Origin: an uncultured Desulfospira sp.
GTDB lineage: Bacteria > Desulfobacterota > Desulfobacteria > Desulfobacterales > Desulfobacteraceae
Length of the DNA: 64,000 bases
Reading direction: 5' to 3'
Assembly: GCA_963663165.1 (NCBI GenBank)
Contig: OY760175.1
Location: forward strand, 4,544,001 to 4,608,000
Shown here piece by piece: positions 49,707 to 61,928 of this stretch (positions are counted from its first letter, which is position 1; each line of letters opens with the position of its first letter). Made by a program: the position numbers and the translations under genes. The notes below the pieces were generated by a model, which was not told where the DNA came from, did no database searches, and saw only the letters and a program-made list of their open reading frames with translations.

Positions 49707-51038
49707 TCAGATCTGCTTTTTTTCTTTGGCCATTTCAATCACAGGCAAATCCGGGAAAGGGCCTCCCGGGACCATGTTGAGAAGTTTTTGGGGCATGCTC
49801 CGGTAAAGAAGCCGCACGCTTATAAGGGCACCTTTTTCCAGGGCCTTTGGCAGGTCAAGGGTAATGTTCCGGGTTTCTTTTGCCTTGATCCGGTTGTCGC
49901 TGAGGACCTGCCGGGCCTTGGCAATGTTGATCACTTCATTTCCCTTCCCGTCCCCAAAGGTGGTTTTAAAGATCAGGGCGTCGTCGGGAAGTTCCTGTTT
50001 TTCGTTTAACATGCCGGACTGGTATAGGATCTGACCGGCCTTGTCGGTGATGCTGATTTCAAGCCAGACCTGGCGAAGGTCTCCCACGCCCGTGGGAATC
50101 GAATGGCCGGCCCCGGAGTTGGTAATGGAAATGGTTAATTCTTTCTGGCCGGCCAGGGGCGTGTCCACAGAAAGGCGGGCTGCGTTTTCCAGCCTTTCTC
50201 TGGCCATGGCGGCCTTTTCTTGAGAGCCGAAGGCCTTTGGGACCCCGGCATTGGCACCCACAAAATAATGGGTGAAAATATGGGGCCGTTCATCGGAATA
50301 GTCGGTTGCCGCCCCCGGGTTTTCAGGTCTTTCGGTGGAGCCGGTGGCCGGGATTCCGGGCCTTTGAAACATGTGGCAGCCCTGGCAGGTGACTCTTTTT
50401 TCGGGGTCTGCGGTGTTATAAGGGCTTTGTTCCCATTCGGTATAAGTGGTCTCAAGGTCGGTGCCAAAGGCCACATGTTTAACATTATGGCAGGTTCCGC
50501 AGATCCGGGATTCCGTGTGGAGTTTTGAGAACGCGGCCTCGTGAAAATCGGGCTGGGCATCATCAAAGGGGCCGTGTTTTATCCCGGGGGCATCTTCCCC
50601 GTGGCCGGGTTCGAGCACAAGGCCGTTGTTGTACATTTGGCTGATGTTGACGGCCGCATGGCAATAGTCGCATTGGATCCCCTGGGTGGCAATCTCCGGG
50701 GTTTTGGACAGGTCATCGGAAAGCTTTTCAGGGAACCCGGTGACAACCCCTACCGGGGTGTGGCATTTGACGCAGGCTTCAGCCTCTTTGATTTCTCCTT
50801 CATGGGTTAAACCCTTTCGGAGAAAGAGGGCCACTCTTGAATAGACCGGATCTTTATGGGACAGGTTGTGCAAGGAATTTTCCCACTGGCTGAAGATACT
50901 GCCGTGGCAGTCCGCACAGGTGGCGGCAGGGATAAACCGCTTAAGCTCGAATTGTTCCTTGGCCCGGAGGCCTGCAGCCGGAAGGGTGATCAGGATAGTA
51001 ACGGTAAATATAATTTTTAATAAATGGGCTGTTTTCAT
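49707..51038 (-). CDS. Exported pentaheme c-type cytochrome (c554/c552-like)
   Basis: Five CxxCH motifs (CADCH, CVKCH, CDYCH, CGTCH, CQGCH); signal peptide; AGHSIPTG...RQVWL. Confidence 0.9.
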   Translation of the reverse strand: MKTAHLLKIIFTVTILITLPAAGLRAKEQFELKRFIPAATCADCHGSIFSQWENSLHNLSHKDPVYSRVALFLRKGLTHEGEIKEAEACVKCHTPVGVVTGFPEKLSDDLSKTPEIATQGIQCDYCHAAVNISQMYNNGLVLEPGHGEDAPGIKHGPFDDAQPDFHEAAFSKLHTESRICGTCHNVKHVAFGTDLETTYTEWEQSPYNTADPEKRVTCQGCHMFQRPGIPATGSTERPENPGAATDYSDERPHIFTHYFVGANAGVPKAFGSQEKAAMARERLENAARLSVDTPLAGQKELTISITNSGAGHSIPTGVGDLRQVWLEISITDKAGQILYQSGMLNEKQELPDDALIFKTTFGDGKGNEVINIAKARQVLSDNRIKAKETRNITLDLPKALEKGALISVRLLYRSMPQKLLNMVPGGPFPDLPVIEMAKEKKQI

Positions 51039-51205
51039 AAATATCCTTAAAATGGCTGTTGGCATTAACGGTCCAGGTCTCATCCCTGATGTTTACAAAT
51101 ATACGCGGGTTTTTTTCATGTCAACCATTTCATTCGGATTCAGGGTAACCGCATTTATAATCCGGCATGATTTTTGGCCATCAGTAGTAAATATAATGTA
51201 AAAAC

Positions 51206-52265: not shown

Positions 52266-52730
52266 CTATGGCGTGACTATGGCGCGGATATGTTTCCTGG
52301 CCGTTTCCATGAAATCGGGAAGGGCTTGGGCCAGGGCCTTCGTGGGTTCTGTTCCCCAGTCGATTTTCTCCGGTTCAATGCCGATGACCTTGAGCTTGGG
52401 GCGGTTTCCCCTGATCTGGGCCATGCCAAGGGAATCTAAAAGGTCAATGTCGTGAAGGGACAGCACCTGTTTTTCATCTTTTCTTAAGTCATCTTCGTCC
52501 AGGCTGTAAATGGTGCCGGGGGTGTGGCCGGCCCGGACAATGTCCAGGACCAGAACGTTTTCATATTCCTCAAACAGATAGAAGATGTCCTGGGTGAAGG
52601 TGCCGCCGTCAATAAAGTCGACCCCGTCCCAGTCATCTTTTTCTTTCCAGAACTCCTGGATGGCATAAACGCCCATGCCTTCATCCATGAGAAGAATATT
52701 GCCCACCCCCAAAACCAGTAGTTTTTTCAT
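52266..52730 (-). CDS. hysD: Hydrogenase maturation protease (HyaD/HybD family)
   Basis: LGVGNILLMDEGMG, DGGT and SLHD motifs; downstream of the large subunit. Confidence 0.9.
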   Translation of the reverse strand: MKKLLVLGVGNILLMDEGMGVYAIQEFWKEKDDWDGVDFIDGGTFTQDIFYLFEEYENVLVLDIVRAGHTPGTIYSLDEDDLRKDEKQVLSLHDIDLLDSLGMAQIRGNRPKLKVIGIEPEKIDWGTEPTKALAQALPDFMETARKHIRAIVTP

Positions 52731-52806
52731 TTGTAGCCTTTAGCAGTTAGTTTCCAAGCCCTTATTATAAATTGGGCCGAAGAAGGGACCCCGGCCCGCA
52801 TGGGCT

Positions 52807-52950
52807 GTGTTTGGACAAGAATTTGCCCAGATGCAAGGCGTAACCAAAGGTCAGAAACCAGGAAAATTTGTAACCGGAGCAACCATTAGGGTTGTGAGGA
52901 TTACAAATTTTCCCGCAACGCAGCAGATGGGTGAATTGTCGTTCAAACAC
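52807..52950. mobile_element. MITE-like element family B, copy 2 (144 bp)
   Basis: Imperfect TIR GTGTTTGGACAAGAATTTGCCC...GGGTGAATTGTCGTTCAAACAC; internal palindrome GGAAAATTTGTAA...TTACAAATTTTCC. Confidence 0.72.
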
Positions 52951-52953
52951 GAA

Positions 52954-54432
52954 TCAAAGGGGAACTTCCACTTTGATCTTTCTACCTGTCTTGGCGTCCA
53001 GCACGTGGACGGCACAGCCCAGTCAGGGGTCGTAGGATCGGATCAGCCGCCCCACATTCACCGGATTTTCAACATCCGGCACCGGGACCCCGATAAGGGA
53101 TTCCTCAATGGGGCCTCTCTGGCCCATGTCGTCTCTGGGGTTGGCGTTCCAGATGGTGGCCGAAGTGACCTGGTAATTGAAAATCTTTTTATCTTTGATG
53201 TTCACGTAATGGAGCAGGGCACCCCGGGGGGCTTCGGTCATGCCAAGGCCTTCAGCGGATTCGGGGATTTGGGCCGGCACAAAGGTTTCCTTGCCGGGTT
53301 GGGCTGCGGCCAGCCATTGCTCAACCGCCAGGGCTACCAGGCCGGTTTCCTCGGCCCTTGCCACATGACGGCCGAGAATGGAGAAACAGGCATCGCCAAT
53401 GTCTCTTAATTTTTTTACGCCCAGGGCATCTTGTCCGGCTTTGGACAGTTCGGGATTGGTGGCCCACATTCTGGCAAGGGGGCCGGCTTCATGGGGTTTG
53501 CCGTTATATCGCGGGGCCTTGATAAAACTGTAGGCACCGGCTTTTTCCGGCTCCGGCAAGGTCTTTCCCACCTTGGGGTTGAGCCCGGTGGTGGAATCAT
53601 TAAACCAGGAGTATTTGACGTACTCTTTGATCATGTTCGGGTCAACCGGGTAATCTTTGCCGTCGGTGTAGACGCCGGGTTTAAGCAGGGTGTTGCCCTT
53701 GGCATCCAGCTGGAAAACGCCCCAGGAGACCAGGTTCTTATGGCCCACACCGGTCTTGAGCAGATCGCCGTAGGGGCCCGCAAGGGTGTAGATCAAGGGG
53801 ATATACTTGTTGAAAACAAACTCTTTTACCTTTTTAAACCGCTCGGCATAGGCATCCAACGCTTCCCTGGTGGGGATCTCTGTAGCGCCGCCCACGACAA
53901 TCCCTTGGACATGGGGCATTTTTCCGCCCAGAAGGGCGACCATTTCGTGACAGACCTTTCTGATCTCAAGGGCTTCCAAATACTGGCCCACGCCGATTTC
54001 ATTAAGGTCTTTGGGTAAGCGGACATCATTCTTGGCATACCGGGGAATAAACGGGGCCGTGTCCGGACCGTTGACATAGTCCAGGGCGGCCAGGTGGTAA
54101 AAATGAAGAATATGGGACTGGAGAAAGTTGGCGCCCAGGATCAGGTTCCGGGCAATTCTGCCGTTATCCGTGAGTTCAACGCCGAATGCATCATCCAGGG
54201 CCAGGGCCGATGCCGTGGCGTGGGCCGTGGGACATACCCCGCAGATCCGCTGGGTGATCTGGGTAGCATCCCTGGGATCTCTGCCCACCAGGATCTGTTC
54301 AAACCCGCGGTACATGCCTCCGGATATTTTTGCATCAACGACTTTGCCGTCTTTTACTTCTACTTCAGCTTTTAAATGGCCTTCAATCCTTGTGACCGGA
54401 TCAATGGCGATTTTCAGTTTACTGCCTGCCAT
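52954..54432 (-). CDS. hysA: [NiFeSe] hydrogenase large subunit (selenocysteine at UGA 53023-53025)
   Basis: DPVTRIEGH and RICGVC. Read-through gives RSYDP-U-LGCAVHVLDAKTGRKIKVEVPL*, which restores the C-terminal DPxxxCxxH motif. Confidence 0.95.
52991..53022 (-). promoter_or_regulatory. Candidate bacterial SECIS hairpin
   Basis: GTCCA-CGTGC-TGGAC stem-loop beginning 12 nt 3' of the in-frame UGA. Confidence 0.6.
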
Positions 54433-54467
54433 AATAAAACCTCCTTGGTTTCGTTAAGTTCCGGAAA

Positions 54468-55406
54468 TTAAGCGGGTTCATAAAAAGGAGATGAGCCGTC
54501 TGGAAACCCCGGTTCAACACAGCCGATACATACGGAATTATCCACACACCAGTTCATGCCGCTGTTCCATTTTCTCTTAAAGCAGTCAGCATAGGTGTCC
54601 GGCCCTTTGCACCCCAGATCCATACGGCAGCCTTTGGGGTCGGACAGTTTTTCAGCCATTTCTCCCCCGTCGTACATCTCAAGGCGGGGACAGTTGTCGT
54701 GGATGTTTTCGCCAAAGAAAAGGGTGGGCCGCCCGGCATCATCAAGTTCGGGAACACCCTTGGTCAAAAGGTGAACAATGGAGCCCACAATCCAGTCCGG
54801 ATGGGGCGGGCAGCCGGGGATGTTGACGGTGGGGGTCTTGATTCCATTGGCTTTGAAAAAGTCCATGGTGCCGGTGGCGCCGGTAACATTGCCCCGGGCT
54901 GCGGGAATTCCGCCGTATGCGGCACAGGTGCCGATGGCCAGGACGGAACCGGCCTGGGGGGCAAGCTCTTTAACCAGGTCCATCATGGTGACTTCTTTTC
55001 CGCCCATCTCGCCGACCACGCAGTATTTGCCGTTGGCCGCAGTGGGAATAGCGCCTTCAATCGCAAGGGAGAATCTGCCGTTGTATTCCTTGGCAACTTC
55101 ATGTATGTGCTCCATCACGATTTCCCCTTCACTGGCCATTACCGTGGGATGGACCTGAAGGCTGATCACTTTGAGAAGAATGTCGGCAATGGTGGGCTCA
55201 ACACTGTTCAGCAAAGAAACTGAGCAGCCGGTGCATCCCTGTCCCTGAATCCATAAGACCGGATGGCGTTCAAGGCCTTTTTCAAGGGCCTGGATCAGCG
55301 CGGGATTAAACATCTGAGAAATACCGATTCCGGCGGCTGTTCCGGTTACGGCTTTTAGAAACCCCCTCCTTGAAACCCCTGACAATTTGTTTTGTTCATC
55401 TTTCAC
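54468..55406 (-). CDS. hysB: [NiFeSe] hydrogenase small subunit, Tat-exported
   Basis: GTG start after AAGGAGG; SRRGFLK Tat motif; CTGC, GTCAAYGG, PGCPPHP, HDNC, GCKGP and CIGC. Confidence 0.93.
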   Translation of the reverse strand: MKDEQNKLSGVSRRGFLKAVTGTAAGIGISQMFNPALIQALEKGLERHPVLWIQGQGCTGCSVSLLNSVEPTIADILLKVISLQVHPTVMASEGEIVMEHIHEVAKEYNGRFSLAIEGAIPTAANGKYCVVGEMGGKEVTMMDLVKELAPQAGSVLAIGTCAAYGGIPAARGNVTGATGTMDFFKANGIKTPTVNIPGCPPHPDWIVGSIVHLLTKGVPELDDAGRPTLFFGENIHDNCPRLEMYDGGEMAEKLSDPKGCRMDLGCKGPDTYADCFKRKWNSGMNWCVDNSVCIGCVEPGFPDGSSPFYEPA

Positions 55407-55676
55407 GGGCACCTCCTTGATGCTGTTAATGATCTGACACCGCTTTAGTGTTCCGCTACAAAAAAGCGTTTTCCTTGCAGGCGAAATTGTCTTTCTCAGA
55501 ATGTTTATATAGGGATATACTATGGGTGTCAACGACTTGAATAGAAAATCCAAATATAAAAGAGAGGACCGAAAGGCGGGAAACGGGAGACCGGATGTTA
55601 AGTACGTCCGAATCTGGCTTCCGGTCTCAGTTACACTTTAACGGTTTGTTTTCTAAATGTGATTGCTTTGGTGTGT

Positions 55677-56654: not shown

Positions 56655-58148
56655 GTGCCCAATCCGCTGCACATCCCTTTTCATGTGTTTCCAGTCCGGA
56701 TTATTATTCCGGTGGGCCTGACCATGCTGCTGTTTTCCCTGACCATTTTCCTGCTGATTATCCCCATGATGGAAGAGAACCTCATGGAAGAAAAACGGCA
56801 GGCCATCATGCACCTGACAGAAACGGCCTGGTCCACCCTTTCCCTGTATCATGAGCGGGTCCAAAAGGGGGAAATCTCCCGGGAAGAGGCCCAAAGACAG
56901 GTGGCCAACCACCTGCTGAACCTGCGGTACGGGCCTGATCTAAAGGACTATTTTTGGATTAACGACATGGGGCCGGTCATGGTCATGCACCCTTATCGTA
57001 CGGATTTGGTCGGAAAGGATATTTCCACTTTCCAGGACCCTGCGGGAAAGTACCTGTTCAAGGATATGGTGGCCCTGGTCAGGGCTCAAAAGGCCGGGTA
57101 TGTGGATTATTTGTGGCAGTGGAAAGAGGACCCGAGCCGGATTGTTCCTAAAATCTCCTATGTCAAAGGGTTTGCCCCCTGGGGATGGATCATCGGCACC
57201 GGGATCTATGTGGAAGATGTCCGTGCCCAGATTTCTCTGATCACCCGGCATCTGACCTTGACCTGCCTTGGGATCATGGCGGCGGTCCTGCTCTTGTCCT
57301 TTTATATTATCCGGGAGGCGGCAAAGGAAAAACAAAGACGGGTCAGGGCCATGGCCCAGTCCAGATTAAGGGAAAAGCAGCTGCTGCAGGCTGACAAGAT
57401 GAGTTCCCTGGGGATCCTCGTGGCCGGAGTGGCCCATGAAATCAACAATCCGGCCGCATCCCTGATGCTCAATGCACCCAACCTGAAAAAAGCATGGGAC
57501 GCTTTTCTGCCGGTGCTGGACGATCATTTTTCCCTGCATCCGGATTCCCGGGTATGCCACATGTCCTATCCTGATTTGAGAAGACGGATTGATCTGATGC
57601 TGGCCGCCCTTCAGGACGGTGCCGGTCGGATCAAAAGAATTATCTCTGAACTCAAGGATTTTTCCAGGCCCGGCACACCGGATATGGATGACGATATCGA
57701 CATCGGCCGGCTGGTCCGGAAATCTGTGGGGTTAACCGCATCCATTATACGGAAAGCCACCCGGAATTTTAAAATCAACTGTGATGAGGCCCTTCCCATG
57801 GTCAAGGGAAACTTTCAAAAGCTTCAGCAGGTGGTGATCAACCTGATCGTCAATTCAGCCCAGGCCCTGGAAAATCTTAACCAGTCCATCGCCATTTCCG
57901 CTTTTGCGGACAATGAAAACGGATTTATTATTATTGAGGTCTCGGACACCGGCCCGGGGGTTTCCGAGCAGGACTTAAAACGGTTGAAAGACCCCTTTTT
58001 TACCACCAGAAGAGATGACGGGGGCACCGGGCTTGGCCTTTCCATCTCTGATAAAATCATCTGCGATCACGGGGGGATGTTGTTGTTTTCCTCTGTCCCG
58101 GGGCAGGGGTTGACCGCCAGGATTCACTTGCCCTTGAACAGCAAATAA
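56655..58148 (+). CDS. Cache-domain sensor histidine kinase (NtrB-like)
   Basis: Two TMs around a Cache_2-like domain (YFWIND...MHPY, WGWIIGTGIY); H-box GVAHEINNP; DTGPG and GTGLGL. Confidence 0.92.
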   Translation: MPNPLHIPFHVFPVRIIIPVGLTMLLFSLTIFLLIIPMMEENLMEEKRQAIMHLTETAWSTLSLYHERVQKGEISREEAQRQVANHLLNLRYGPDLKDYFWINDMGPVMVMHPYRTDLVGKDISTFQDPAGKYLFKDMVALVRAQKAGYVDYLWQWKEDPSRIVPKISYVKGFAPWGWIIGTGIYVEDVRAQISLITRHLTLTCLGIMAAVLLLSFYIIREAAKEKQRRVRAMAQSRLREKQLLQADKMSSLGILVAGVAHEINNPAASLMLNAPNLKKAWDAFLPVLDDHFSLHPDSRVCHMSYPDLRRRIDLMLAALQDGAGRIKRIISELKDFSRPGTPDMDDDIDIGRLVRKSVGLTASIIRKATRNFKINCDEALPMVKGNFQKLQQVVINLIVNSAQALENLNQSIAISAFADNENGFIIIEVSDTGPGVSEQDLKRLKDPFFTTRRDDGGTGLGLSISDKIICDHGGMLLFSSVPGQGLTARIHLPLNSK

Positions 58149-58202
58149 GGTAAAGAATAGCTTACGGTTGCCAAATTAAAATCAAATTTGGACTGTTTTA
58201 TT

Positions 58203-59582
58203 ATGGAACAAATATCGTGTCCCGACCGCCCTGTTTTCATTGTTGATGACGAACCAGAGATCCTGCTGGCCGTTGATACCACCCTTCGAATGGCCGGCAT
58301 GGACAATGTGATTACCATCAGCGATTCAAGGGATGTGATCCGTCAGATGGAGCGGAGCGTCCCGAGCCTGGTCCTGCTCGACCTGAACATGCCCCACATC
58401 AACGGGGGAAAACTCTTAAAAATTATCCGGAAAACATGGCCCCGGATTCCGGTCATTGTGCTTACCGGCACCATTGAGGTGGATACGGCGGTCCGGTGCA
58501 TGAAAATCGGTGCCATGGATTATCTGATCAAGCCCGTGGAAGAGGAAAAGCTTCTGAATGTGGTGAAACATGCCCTGGATGAAAGTTCGGAAACCGGAAC
58601 CGTCAGTCAGCCCAAAGATCTTTTTGACCAGGTTAAGCATCCCGAAGCCTTCCGGCATATCATCACCCAGGATGAGCAGATGCATTCCATCTTTCATTAT
58701 ATTGAGGCGGTGGCCCCGTCGTCCAAGCCGGTTCTGATCTTCGGGGAAACCGGGGTTGGCAAAGAACTGGTGGGAAGGTCCATCCATGCCCTGAGCAACA
58801 GAAAAGGGCAGCTGGTGGTGGTCAATGTGGCCGGCTTAGATGACAATGTGTTTTCCGACACCTTGTTCGGCCATGTCAAGGGGGCGTTTACCGGTGCTGA
58901 GAAATCCAGATCCGGCCTGATTGAACAGGCCGCCGGCGGAACCCTTCTTTTAGATGAGATCGGGGATCTGGCCCTGGTCTCCCAGGTAAAGCTGTTGCGG
59001 CTGCTCCAGGAAGGGGAATACCTGCCTTTGGGGTGTGACCGGACCCGCCATTCCGATGTCAGGATTATTGCCTCCACCAACCAGGATCTCTGGGCCCTTG
59101 AAAAAAATGGGGAGTTCAGAAAGGATTTGATTTACCGGCTGTCCACCCATACCTTGACCCTGCCGCCTCTAAGGGAAAGACTTCTGGATCTTCCGCTGCT
59201 GTTGGACCGGTTTGTCTGCCAGGCCGCAGACGAGCTGGACAAGCCGGTTCCCGATATCCCCAAAAATCTTATTGAACAATTGGAGTCTTATCCCTTTAAG
59301 GGGAATATCCGGGAACTCAAATCCATGGTATACGATGCCCTGTCCCGGCATAAAGAGGGGCCCATTACCGCAGAGCTGTTCAAAGGGCTGGCCGATATAG
59401 ATTTACAGCTGCTGGATGAGGATGGGCCGGATTCTGATCTGCCCACATTAAAGGATGCATCCCGGGAACTGGTGGAGCGGGCCATGGCCCGGACCGGGGG
59501 AAATCAGTCGGCAGCTGCCAAAATTCTGGGGATCTCCCAGCAGGCGTTGAGCAAGCGGCTGCAAAAGATGAAAACCGAATAG
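58203..59582 (+). CDS. Sigma-54-dependent response regulator (NtrC family bEBP)
   Basis: Receiver domain; GETGVGKE, GAFTGA, LDEIGD and GNIREL; Fis HTH GNQSAAAKILGIS. Confidence 0.95.
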   Translation: MEQISCPDRPVFIVDDEPEILLAVDTTLRMAGMDNVITISDSRDVIRQMERSVPSLVLLDLNMPHINGGKLLKIIRKTWPRIPVIVLTGTIEVDTAVRCMKIGAMDYLIKPVEEEKLLNVVKHALDESSETGTVSQPKDLFDQVKHPEAFRHIITQDEQMHSIFHYIEAVAPSSKPVLIFGETGVGKELVGRSIHALSNRKGQLVVVNVAGLDDNVFSDTLFGHVKGAFTGAEKSRSGLIEQAAGGTLLLDEIGDLALVSQVKLLRLLQEGEYLPLGCDRTRHSDVRIIASTNQDLWALEKNGEFRKDLIYRLSTHTLTLPPLRERLLDLPLLLDRFVCQAADELDKPVPDIPKNLIEQLESYPFKGNIRELKSMVYDALSRHKEGPITAELFKGLADIDLQLLDEDGPDSDLPTLKDASRELVERAMARTGGNQSAAAKILGISQQALSKRLQKMKTE

Positions 59583-59654
59583 TGTTGGGCGGCCATTAAC
59601 CCATCTGCGGCGTTGCAGTAAACATGGCATCAGGATAAATTACAGTCCAAACAC
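59582..59654. mobile_element. MITE-like element family B, internally deleted copy 3 (73 bp, opposite orientation)
   Basis: GTGTTGGGCGGCCATTAACCCATCTGCGGCGTTGC and GCATCAGGATAAATTACAGTCCAAACAC match the reverse complements of the two ends of 52807-52950. Confidence 0.65.
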
Positions 59655-59670
59655 GGCTCTTTGCCTGGCC

Positions 59671-59773
59671 CACAACAAAAGTTGTGTTTACAATTTTTGT
59701 TGTGAATCGGCTGGATGGTCTTCCCTGTAAGCGGTATTTCCATTCTTTGTTTATTCCTACAATAAAAGTTGTA
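59671..59773. promoter_or_regulatory. Three bEBP enhancer palindromes YACAAY-N4-GTTGTR
   Basis: CACAACAAAAGTTGTG 59671-59686; TACAATTTTTGTTGTG 59689-59704; TACAATAAAAGTTGTA 59758-59773. Confidence 0.75.
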
Positions 59774-59846
59774 TTTATGCGACCCGGTTTTTACGGGATG
59801 ATTTTGAATATTCTTTAAAATCAGCATGATAGCCTTTCCATTTATT

Positions 59847-59862
59847 TGGCATAATTATTGCA
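59847..59862 (+). promoter_or_regulatory. Sigma-54 promoter
   Basis: TGGCATAATTATTGCA = TGGCA-N6-TTGCA with exact GG-N10-GC spacing. Confidence 0.82.
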
Positions 59863-59872
59863 ATATTTAGGT

Positions 59873-60065
59873 GTTGCATTGCAAAGCCTGTTGAGTGTCA
59901 CAAGGAACTGACACCATAGACCCCTGGGCCCTGGTTTCCGTGTGAAACCGGGGTCTGCTTTGGTCCGGGACGTGATCGGGGTCCCGGGCCAAACAGGGTC
60001 CGTAAAAAAGTTCTTTTCCTCCATAGGGGCCGGAAGGTGTGCTGCCTTTCGGCCCTTTTGCTTTT
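59873..60065 (+). ncRNA. Candidate sigma-54-dependent structured small RNA (~190 nt)
   Basis: Lies between the sigma-54 promoter and an intrinsic terminator. Contains a GGA-loop hairpin, a three-way junction and a single-stranded CU-rich tract. No credible ORF. Confidence 0.65.
60027..60065 (+). terminator. Intrinsic terminator
   Basis: GGGCCGGAAGGT-GTGCT-GCCTTTCGGCCC followed by TTTTGCTTTT. Confidence 0.8.
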
Positions 60066-60236: not shown

Positions 60237-61928
60237 ATGCCCGAATATGAGTTGACCCATCTGCTGGTGGATGATGAGCAGCATATGGTTTTGAAAAAAC
60301 TGACATCTTCCATGCCCGATGTGATTTTAAACGACCGGCAGATTTGTGATTTTGAGCTGCTGGTTACCGGGGTATTCAGCCCGTTGAAAGGATTCATGAA
60401 CCAAATCGACTATGAGTCGGTTCTGGACCGGATGCGGCTGTCCTCGGGAGAGATCTGGCCGGTTCCCATCTGCCTGGACATTGGCGAAACCCTGGCCAAC
60501 AGTCTTGAAGTCGGCCAGTCCGTGGTTCTCAGGGACCAGGAAGGGTTCCCCTTAGGGGTCATGAACCTTGACGATATCTGGCCTGTGGAACCGGAAAAAG
60601 AGGCGCTAAGTGTATACAACACCCTGGACCAGACCCATCCCGGGGTGGATTACCTGTTTAACAAGTCCGGGCAATATTATATTGGCGGAAGTATTCAGGC
60701 CCTGAACCTGCCCATTCATTCGGATTTCAGGCAGATTCGGATGACCCCTGCAGAGGTGAGAAAGGCCTTTGAAAAACTGGGGTGGAAACGGATTGTGGGG
60801 TTCCAGACCCGGCAGCCCATTCACCGTCCCCAGTTTGAAATGACCATCCAGGCCATGCGCCAGGCCAAGGCCAACCTGCTGCTGCTGCCGGTGGCCGGAA
60901 TTCCCCGGCCTGGTGATTTTGACCATTACACCCGCATGCGCTGCTACCAGAAACTGGAAAGCCATTATCCGCCCAACGCCCACATGATCAACCTGCTGCC
61001 CTTGTCCATGCGCATGGCAGGCCCGAGGGACGCGGTCCTTCACATGATCATCGGCAAGAATTTCGGCTGTACCCATTTTGTCATCGGCCACAACCACGGC
61101 AGCCCGGGGAAGGACAGTGAGGGGAACCCCTTTTACGGCTATGACCAGGCCGCGGAACTGGCCGGGGAGGCCGCAGGAGAGCTGGGCATTGAAGCGGTCT
61201 CTTTCGAGGAAATGGTTTACCTGCCCTTTGATGATGAGTTTAAGCTGGTATCACAGGTTAGAGAGGATCAGGACAGCATCTCTTTTTCCGGCGGTGATAT
61301 CAGAGACCGGATCAGAAACGGAAAACGGGTTCCGGAATGGGCCAGTTTCCCGGAGGTACTGACGGAACTGGACAGATCCTACCCGCCCCCCTCACGCCAG
61401 GGGTTTACCATTTTTTTAACCGGACTTTCCGGTGCCGGCAAATCCACCATTGCCCGGGTCCTGTACTCCCGGTTCATGGAAATCGGGACCCGGCCGGTAT
61501 CTCTTCTGGACGGGGATATCGTGAGAAGAAATTTGTCCAGTGAGCTTAATTTTTCCAAAGAACACCGGGATATCAATGTCCGGCGCATCAGTTTTGTGGC
61601 CTCTGAAATTACCAAAAACAGAGGCATTGCCATCTGTGCCCCCATTGCGCCCTATGAGCGGACCAGAACCGAAATTCGAAAGACCATTGAAGCCTATGGC
61701 GGTTTTTTTGAAATTCACGTGGCCACCCCCATTTCAGAGTGTGAAAAACGAGATCGAAAAGGCATGTATGCCAAGGCAAGGGCCGGGCTTCTCAAGGGGT
61801 TTACCGGCGTGGATGACCCTTACGAAGCCCCGGAGCAGCCGGAGCTGCGGATTGACACCACCAATTTGACCCCCGACGAGGCCGCCCAGGAGGTGTTGCT
61901 GCTGCTCAGTGAAAAGGGATTTGTGTAA
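60237..61928 (+). CDS. cysC: Bifunctional sulfate adenylyltransferase / adenylylsulfate kinase fusion
   Basis: Sat-like N-terminus ([21 protein letters not shown]) plus APS kinase ([31 protein letters not shown]). Confidence 0.9.

Follow-up and report, generated by a model that had tools for sequence, protein, structure and literature searches.

In the 64,000-nt stretch of an uncultured Desulfospira genome analyzed here (the window; source genome G000, 6.74 Mb, 96.7% complete), genes for a sensor histidine kinase and an NtrC-type response regulator were followed by three palindromic enhancer sites, a sigma-54 promoter, a folded element ending in an intrinsic terminator and, outside this unit, sat-cysC (Table 1). 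An earlier note on this DNA had proposed that the element encodes a small RNA as the apparent output of the two-component system. Comparison with relatives indicated a different origin: the element almost certainly consists of the last eight codons and stop of acs, the acs 3' untranslated region (3'UTR) and the terminator, joined to the promoter by a deletion of about 3.3 kb. The main genomes compared were a sister genome with the same deletion (G001) and a relative of the same genus with intact transporter and acs genes (G002). DNA searches covered 61 genomes, of which G001 matched the whole region and G002 gave a split match. The acs and transporter proteins of a Desulfospira joergensenii stretch (L137) were identical to those of G002.

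Table 1. Features of the locus, in window coordinates.
Feature	Position	Strand	Basis or remark
sCache_2 histidine kinase	56655..58148	+	Pfam sCache_2, HisKA, HATPase_c; predicted to sense acetate-like C2/C3 carboxylates
NtrC-type response regulator (receiver, sigma-54 activator, Fis helix-turn-helix)	58188..59582	+	Domain matches
Insertion of about 80 nt, decayed piece of a dispersed repeat	59583..59670	.	Between regulator stop and site 1; gap in G001
Enhancer sites 1 and 2, palindromes repeated in tandem every 18 nt	59671..59704	.	0/32 nt changed in G001
Enhancer site 3	59758..59773	.	One motif-compatible change in G001
Integration host factor (IHF)-like site	59819..59831	.	Matched in 17/30 loci; without match in G001
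Sigma-54 -24/-12 box	59847..59862	+	Predicted +1 at 59873; identical in G001
Deletion junction, replacing about 3.3 kb of transporter and acs	59873..59891	+	Strongly diverged between G000 and G001
acs 3'-end remnant, 8 codons and stop	59893..59919	+	Includes 59902-59909, the 5' side of the predicted outer helix
Two-arm junction, formerly part of the acs 3'UTR	59919..60000	+	Fold prediction; 3 double-sided arm changes among 3 sequences
Invariant 15-nt linker	60009..60023	+	60009-60016 close the outer helix; 60017-60023 are a predicted free anti-Shine-Dalgarno stretch
Intrinsic terminator from the acs operon	60025..60065	+	Stem 60025-60057; 4 double-sided changes; homologous stems after acs in relatives
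sat-cysC, downstream neighbour outside the unit	60237..61928	+	NCBIfam PRK05537; different gene there in G002

The kinase and regulator genes described in the earlier note were recovered with unchanged boundaries, as were the palindromes of the form YACAAY-N4-GTTGTR (starting at 59671, 59689 and 59758) and the consensus sigma-54 promoter. Shuffling the intergenic region 2000 times gave on average 0.0005 palindromes and 0.004 sigma-54 boxes per shuffle. The strict palindrome pattern had nine matches in the genome, three of them at this locus, and only these three had a consensus sigma-54 box within 300 nt. Among the orthologous regulator loci inspected (the best 30 of about 70), the three sites were found in 28 and the sigma-54 box likewise in 28. 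Orthologues of the regulator across the family shared 70-97% identity, and no relative was found in the viral contigs searched. The locus is best described as a predicted enhancer-dependent sigma-54 promoter next to the gene of its activator. A further motif between the sites and the promoter resembles the IHF consensus. The repeat piece following the regulator gene had about 39 partial matches elsewhere in G000.

The sensor domain of the kinase gave its best PDB matches to 5g4y and 4k08, and matched PscD and Adeh_3718. All seven ligand contacts of PscD (Tyr90, Trp92, His103, Phe126, Tyr143, Trp145, and Lys156), taken from the part of PMC5062169 that gives the carboxylate-contact residues, were identical in the aligned kinase, which is consistent with the ligand-responsive, carboxylate-type sensing suggested earlier. 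Because the predicted targets are acs and a monocarboxylate transporter, acetate would be the likeliest signal of the system.

In G002, the order was kinase, regulator, three sites, promoter, transporter, acs, and a folded segment overlapping the acs stop codon; the palindromes and the folded segment were 3.5 kb apart, the segment lying 3.3 kb downstream of the same promoter. The corresponding remnant in the window reads in frame as ECHKELTP-stop, and acs of G002 ends in ECHKELTQ-stop; this acs end had been overlooked in the statement that the region holds no credible open reading frame (ORF). The transporter scored above the cut-off for the SfMCT L-lactate/monocarboxylate family, and acs above that for AcsA. 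Apart from G000 and G001, the transporter gene directly followed the promoter in 26 of 28 orthologous loci; one of the other two was a contig end, and the whole unit was missing in the other. In three more genomes (G022, G132, and G064), acs directly followed the promoter. No orthologue of the regulator-linked acs was found in G000 or G001 (best identity 47%) and none of the transporter in G000 (best 43%), nor was any DNA remnant of either gene detected elsewhere in G000. Since relatives keep the transporter and acs while G000 and G001 have no orthologues, the deletion is the derived state. The ancestral unit, as reconstructed from these gene orders, comprised the kinase, the regulator, three sites, the sigma-54 promoter, an SfMCT-family transporter, acs, a structured 3'UTR and the terminator. 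The element is accordingly the 3' end of an acs mRNA left by the deletion, and not a de novo small RNA of the CrcZ, Qrr or GlmY type.

A weight matrix built from 36 distinct sites of the relatives detected 104 sites in G000, with only two clusters of at least three: this locus, and four sites with a sigma-54 box before an acs-transporter operon (G000:C1:180287). This second operon (G000:C1:180001-183741; L136:10001-13742) follows a pyrophosphate (PPi)-phosphofructokinase gene and encodes a transporter of the SfMCT family together with an acs of a different clade; two copies were found only in G000 and G001 (2/151 genomes). Its upstream sites were also present in G001 and G132. The closest copy of the operon (92%) was in G132, where the acs linked to the regulator breaks off at residue 525, and the operon's promoter region in G001 had lost one site and carried two changes in the sigma-54 box. 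Retention of the two-component system is explained by this operon, because it bears the system's sites, and the RNA is therefore not the sole output. The family-wide output is the transporter and acs, contrary to the earlier reading of the RNA as what the system produces. Together, the sites, promoter, transporter and acs define a predicted acetate-type regulon in Desulfobacteraceae. No published description of such a two-component regulon in this family, or of an RNA at this locus, was found in a search that did not extend to most subscription papers or to supplements. Separately, a lone strong enhancer-like site (19.5 bits) was located at G000:C1:624385, with no neighbouring site or sigma-54 box found nearby.

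The segment 59870-60065 had a predicted folding energy of -92.6 kcal/mol (z -5.1), and none of 200 shuffles was as stable, in line with the fold described before. The terminator-like stem, 170 nt before sat-cysC, was likewise recovered, and the element indeed belonged to no Rfam family, with no match near the gathering score and none in the loci of six relatives. For the transcript starting at +1 in G000, a long-range outer helix (59902-59909 with 60009-60016) had a predicted probability of 0.90, vs 0.08 for the 5' hairpin with GGA in its loop that the earlier note had drawn; this hairpin is part of the minimum free energy structure of 59870-60065, but in the transcript from +1 the GGA is buried. 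The corresponding values were 0.63 vs 0.22 in G001 and 0.85 vs 0.15 in the G002 fragment, whereas with 100 nt of upstream acs the predicted fold in G002 switched to the hairpin (0.98). Both structures are model predictions close in energy. Only one position of the 8-bp outer helix has changed, from A-U to G-U, and the pair is kept; formation of this helix may be the reason why acs codons were kept and why the deletion ended 10 nt upstream of it. The linker was identical in all three genus members. Because the outer helix uses its first eight positions, the anti-Shine-Dalgarno-like stretch that had been taken as unpaired is only partly free: UUCCUCC had a mean unpaired probability of 0.65 in the transcript from +1, and UCCUCCA is the predicted free stretch. 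Neither blastn nor nhmmer found a second copy of the element in G000, and an origin of the arms from a repetitive extragenic palindromic (REP) sequence or a miniature inverted-repeat transposable element (MITE) was dropped on account of this single copy.

Between G000 and G001, the sites and promoter differed at one position in 65 nt, compared with 39 in 125 nt of the intervening spacers (Fisher 1.5e-7). The junction (59863-59891) had 14 mismatches and four gaps in 29 nt. In the element (59892-60060), 4 of 169 nt were changed, or 3 of 132 without the terminator, vs 16/75 in the downstream flank and 135/847 at fourfold sites of four neighbouring genes; the element without its terminator differed strongly from the non-coding flanks (Fisher 2.6e-13). 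Because both genomes share the deletion while the junction has decayed, the motifs have most likely been maintained after the deletion. Against G002, from which G000 diverges by 43-46% at fourfold sites, the two-arm junction was identical at 61 of 81 positions and the linker region at 21 of 23. Double-sided changes were found in 7 of 51 pairs among the three sequences, three in the arms and four in the terminator. Judging from these comparisons, the remnant and promoter look selected after the deletion, and a selected function of the RNA appears reasonably probable.

One sample contained both G000-like and G001-like contigs, so gene flow between the two lineages is possible; in four DNA sequencing runs, only G001-like and G000-like alleles were seen. 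A local recombination tract is nevertheless unlikely as the cause of the conservation, because within 94 kb only 2 of 377 coding blocks (168 nt) had at most one third-position change. Elsewhere, near-identical multi-kb tracts between G000 and G001 (L130 and L135 of G001) stood out against a divergence of 16%, which suggests recent gene flow.

The explanation that we consider best, with a probability of roughly 0.45 for the whole, is that the acetate-type system drives an RNA of about 190 nt, derived from the acs remnant, that represses messages at their ribosome-binding sites. Acetate or another C2/C3 carboxylate would bind the sCache_2 domain, and the phosphorylated regulator on its sites would open both sigma-54 promoters. 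Transcription would start at 59873 and end at about 60065; that a discrete transcript is made from the element seems quite likely. The RNA would fold with the outer helix, formed by dead acs codons and the linker, around two long arms, leaving UCCUCCA free before the terminator. This stretch would nucleate pairing with GGAGGA ribosome-binding sites, and the duplex could be lengthened if the outer helix opens; neither Hfq nor ProQ would be needed. Where relatives have retained acs, the segment would occur as a processed 3' fragment; in G002, the upstream acs coding sequence would favour one of the two folds, and the segment would adopt the other once released.

If the RNA has a function, pairing at ribosome-binding sites would be its likely mechanism. 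It is favoured because Hfq and ProQ were not found, CsrA is encoded beside fliW, and the tract is absent at other terminators: of the 106 further terminators predicted in G000, not one had TTCCTCC within the 25 nt upstream. Searches in which positive controls were detected returned Hfq in 0 of 5 genomes and ProQ in 0 of 3, and two genes of the RNase E/G family and KhpA/B-type proteins were present.

Targets, which the earlier note had wished to see predicted, were sought by duplex ranking of 5380 predicted start regions, a pattern search in five genomes, with 20 of the matching regions retrieved, and a scan for the longest complement. These yielded candidates only; none held up, and no covarying site was found. 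The best candidate, the start of a polar amino-acid ATP-binding cassette (ABC) binding-protein gene (G000:C1:3221091, minus strand), ranked 5/5380, with a matching site in all three genus members; if this message is a target, the RNA would act as a brake on alternative uptake in the presence of acetate. The top-ranked candidate, a secreted phosphoesterase, was rejected, having been found neither in G002 nor in three other genomes, and a 25-nt partial complement was dropped since it lies inside a coding region. The second-operon acs and transporter messages ranked 2031 and 810 of 5380. Several of the best-ranked starts belong to genes for exported or transport proteins, which might be due simply to strong A-rich sites. 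A 130-codon ORF present in six identical copies, upstream DNA included (G000:C1:1874876, 1893849, 2319472, 2672983, and 6329076 on the plus strand and 986045 on the minus strand), is probably an insertion sequence, and its start region pairs moderately with the linker.

The range of the RNA in the family is narrow. The full-length fold was confined to three genus members, while a core of about 45 nt reached another genus: with the terminator, this core could be aligned across the three genus members and six genomes from the other genus. In a model of the core, these nine training sequences scored 58-93 bits and the next match, among those above 36 bits that were inspected, was another acs 3' end (42.9 bits). 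Among the acs 3' regions (70 retrieved, of which one was too short), the 69 analyzed varied widely; a terminator stem was recognisably common to many and was called by script in 32. A pattern of loop, CU tract and terminator was matched by six stretches in species genomes and three in metagenomes; four of these nine were of this locus type (L137, L140, L141, and L145), and the remaining five, without acs or regulator, were dropped as chance. A hairpin-loop motif of the TGATCG/TGATTG type, perhaps a protein site or a seed, was also noticed a short distance before the acs terminator on two separate branches of the acs tree (L059, L068, L069, L091, L098, L099, L043, L046, L049, L052, and L065). 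A TGATCG-like loop motif occurred in 14 of 69 acs 3' regions; its alignment with the Desulfospira RNA was ambiguous, and it is noted only as a lead.

Several observations weigh against a ribosome-binding-site-pairing RNA. The stand-alone form was found in two genomes only, the full two-arm fold in 3 of 150, and the full-length model strongly found only its three training sequences. The exact CU tract TTTTCCTCC stood before the terminator in only 3 of the 69 acs 3' regions, and a looser form in 9. Intramolecular pairing accounts for eight of the 15 invariant bases in the linker, and the covariation is weak, resting on one real contrast among three sequences. The IHF-like site has decayed in G001. 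High conservation was found in other places as well: 16 of 50 other non-coding gaps (21 G001 stretches, about 410 kb) held a 120-nt window at least 97.5% identical, some of them probably unannotated genes or recombined tracts, and genome-wide no more than one third-position change was seen in 154 of 1345 coding blocks, of which 115 lay in two loci. The site before the ABC candidate was present in 7 of 30 orthologues, including 4 of 27 outside the genus in a clade in which no sampled acs 3'UTR has the tract, and cross-pairing with this candidate gave no clear covariation. Finally, retention of a 3' end proves nothing by itself, because acs has been lost repeatedly, with terminators and UTR fragments staying in place. 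In G159, a UTR hairpin bearing the loop motif and the terminator remain after the transporter (L168:3213-3400); G127 (L169) keeps the terminator and G148 (L171) a decayed acs end, and the regulator-linked acs was also independently lost in L179 (G169), where the transporter is left. Such scars in the family indicate that 3'-end retention is common, and that a remnant elsewhere can decay.

The same recurrent losses are what an ordinary deletion scar would predict, in which the second operon took over, the old genes were lost, the terminator merely insulates the kinase and regulator genes from sat-cysC, and the short RNA is inert. The equally conserved other gaps, the possible gene flow between lineages that share a sample and the lack of a target that held up all fit such a scar. 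It is nonetheless somewhat less likely than a functional RNA, since the sites and -24/-12 box stayed intact (1/65) while the spacers (39/125) and the junction decayed, and only 3 of 132 nt outside the terminator changed. The promoter was kept at least as well as that of the intact second operon, which in G001 lost a site and gained two box changes. A scar would moreover require either that a deletion with identical ends arose twice, independently and recently, or that a 170-nt recombination tract happened to coincide with the borders of the element.

An RNA whose fold titrates CsrA, a different RNA-binding protein or a nuclease, instead of pairing with mRNAs, is improbable. The ACAAGGA of the element matches the core of the CsrA consensus and occupies a hairpin loop in one of the two predicted folds, csrA was found in 5 of 5 genomes searched, KhpA/B-type proteins are available, and the long arms are conserved beyond the needs of a short seed. 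The RNA, however, contains only three GGA, two of them in stems and the third predicted paired (P 0.90); this third one derives from acs His-Lys-Glu codons and is AAAGA in G002. Sponges of the CsrB/RsmZ type expose several GGA motifs in loops. A CsrA sponge as the main role was thus rejected, no GGA being predicted exposed in the dominant fold, and the CsrA binding suggested in the earlier note is not supported, its single candidate site being predicted paired and absent in G002. The csrA gene lies between a flagellin C-terminal-domain gene and fliW, an arrangement of the protein-antagonised type; FliW is described as the protein antagonist of fliW-linked CsrA in the relevant part of PMC13443453.

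Still less probable is a leader or attenuator, with the sigma-54 promoter rewired to sat-cysC and read-through controlled by the fold. Although sat-cysC lies on the same strand 170 nt downstream and follows acs in some relatives, and the predictions give two alternative folds, in G002 the element forms a 3'UTR before a different gene, its 14-bp terminator is undisturbed in both folds, and no riboswitch family matched. A sigma-70-like promoter was also recognised by eye between the terminator and sat-cysC, here and in relatives, and was not flagged by the program that reported the terminator-like stem. A small protein gene on either strand can practically be discounted, since the one ORF of note (60 amino acids, antisense, 59842-60024) stops after five codons in G001 and has no start codon in G002, and plus-strand frames are a few codons long without a ribosome-binding site. 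The history of the locus is well supported and its range narrow; a function of the RNA remains fairly probable on comparative grounds, and repression at ribosome-binding sites is the mechanism we infer.

CbrAB-CrcZ, LuxO-Qrr and GlrKR-GlmY each combine a two-component system, a sigma-54 promoter and a small RNA. Their RNAs and those of the CsrB/RsmZ type act through Hfq, RapZ or many GGA loops, features that were not found for the RNA described here. A closer parallel in origin is OxyS, which arose from the 3' end of a peroxidase mRNA, according to the account of its origin in Krieger et al. (2022; PMC8825220). As in that account, the last codons, 3'UTR and terminator outlive the parent gene under the parent's regulator and sites. 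Unlike in the OxyS case, two genes were lost here, the promoter is of the sigma-54 type with a two-component activator, Hfq was not found, a single genus contains the states before and after the loss, and the lost function was taken over by a second operon. OxyS is described there as a proven regulator, whereas the present RNA is predicted; the two are unrelated in sequence (no Rfam match).

The state in G002 resembles GlnZ, the glnA 3'UTR RNA, in being the 3' end of a metabolic-enzyme mRNA under an NtrC-type activator, as outlined in the relevant parts of PMC9731577 and 10.1101/2022.04.01.486790. GlnZ, by the same outlines, needs Hfq and release by RNase E and rides on its mRNA, whereas here two genomes have lost the parent and no Hfq was detected. 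SdhX, which derives from the 3' end of sdh-suc, is portrayed in the pertinent sections of PMC6393394 and PMC9438474 as an acetate-linked 3'-end RNA whose short seed precedes the terminator and is flanked by variable sequence; it differs in being Hfq-dependent, in its parent operon and in its known target ackA, there being only candidate targets here. In Desulfovibrio vulgaris, the response regulator DVU0679 targets Dv_sRNA2 directly downstream of it, a case from a sulfate reducer that is similar by description only; the portion of PMC3333781 concerned states no mRNA origin.

The locus may hold a regulatory RNA that is becoming independent in a lineage where Hfq was not found, an acs tail in G002 and separate in G000 and G001, with one acetate signal serving a protein arm and an RNA arm at two loci. 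The origins of bacterial small RNAs are not yet settled, and for OxyS the history had to be pieced together by comparing different families. The presence of both states in one genus, one of them in a named strain (L137), makes both OxyS routes, function before or after gene loss, directly testable. If the reading is true, the locus would provide a base-pairing RNA in sulfate reducers in which Hfq was not found; if the RNA is inert, the element amounts to an ordinary deletion scar, and the value of the locus lies in the regulon alone.

In the window upstream of the kinase and regulator genes, a gene resembling multiheme cytochrome c554 (49707-51083, minus strand) and, at 52266-55553 on the same strand, a small and large subunit pair of NiFe hydrogenase with a maturation protease, named by eye from the translations, were noticed.

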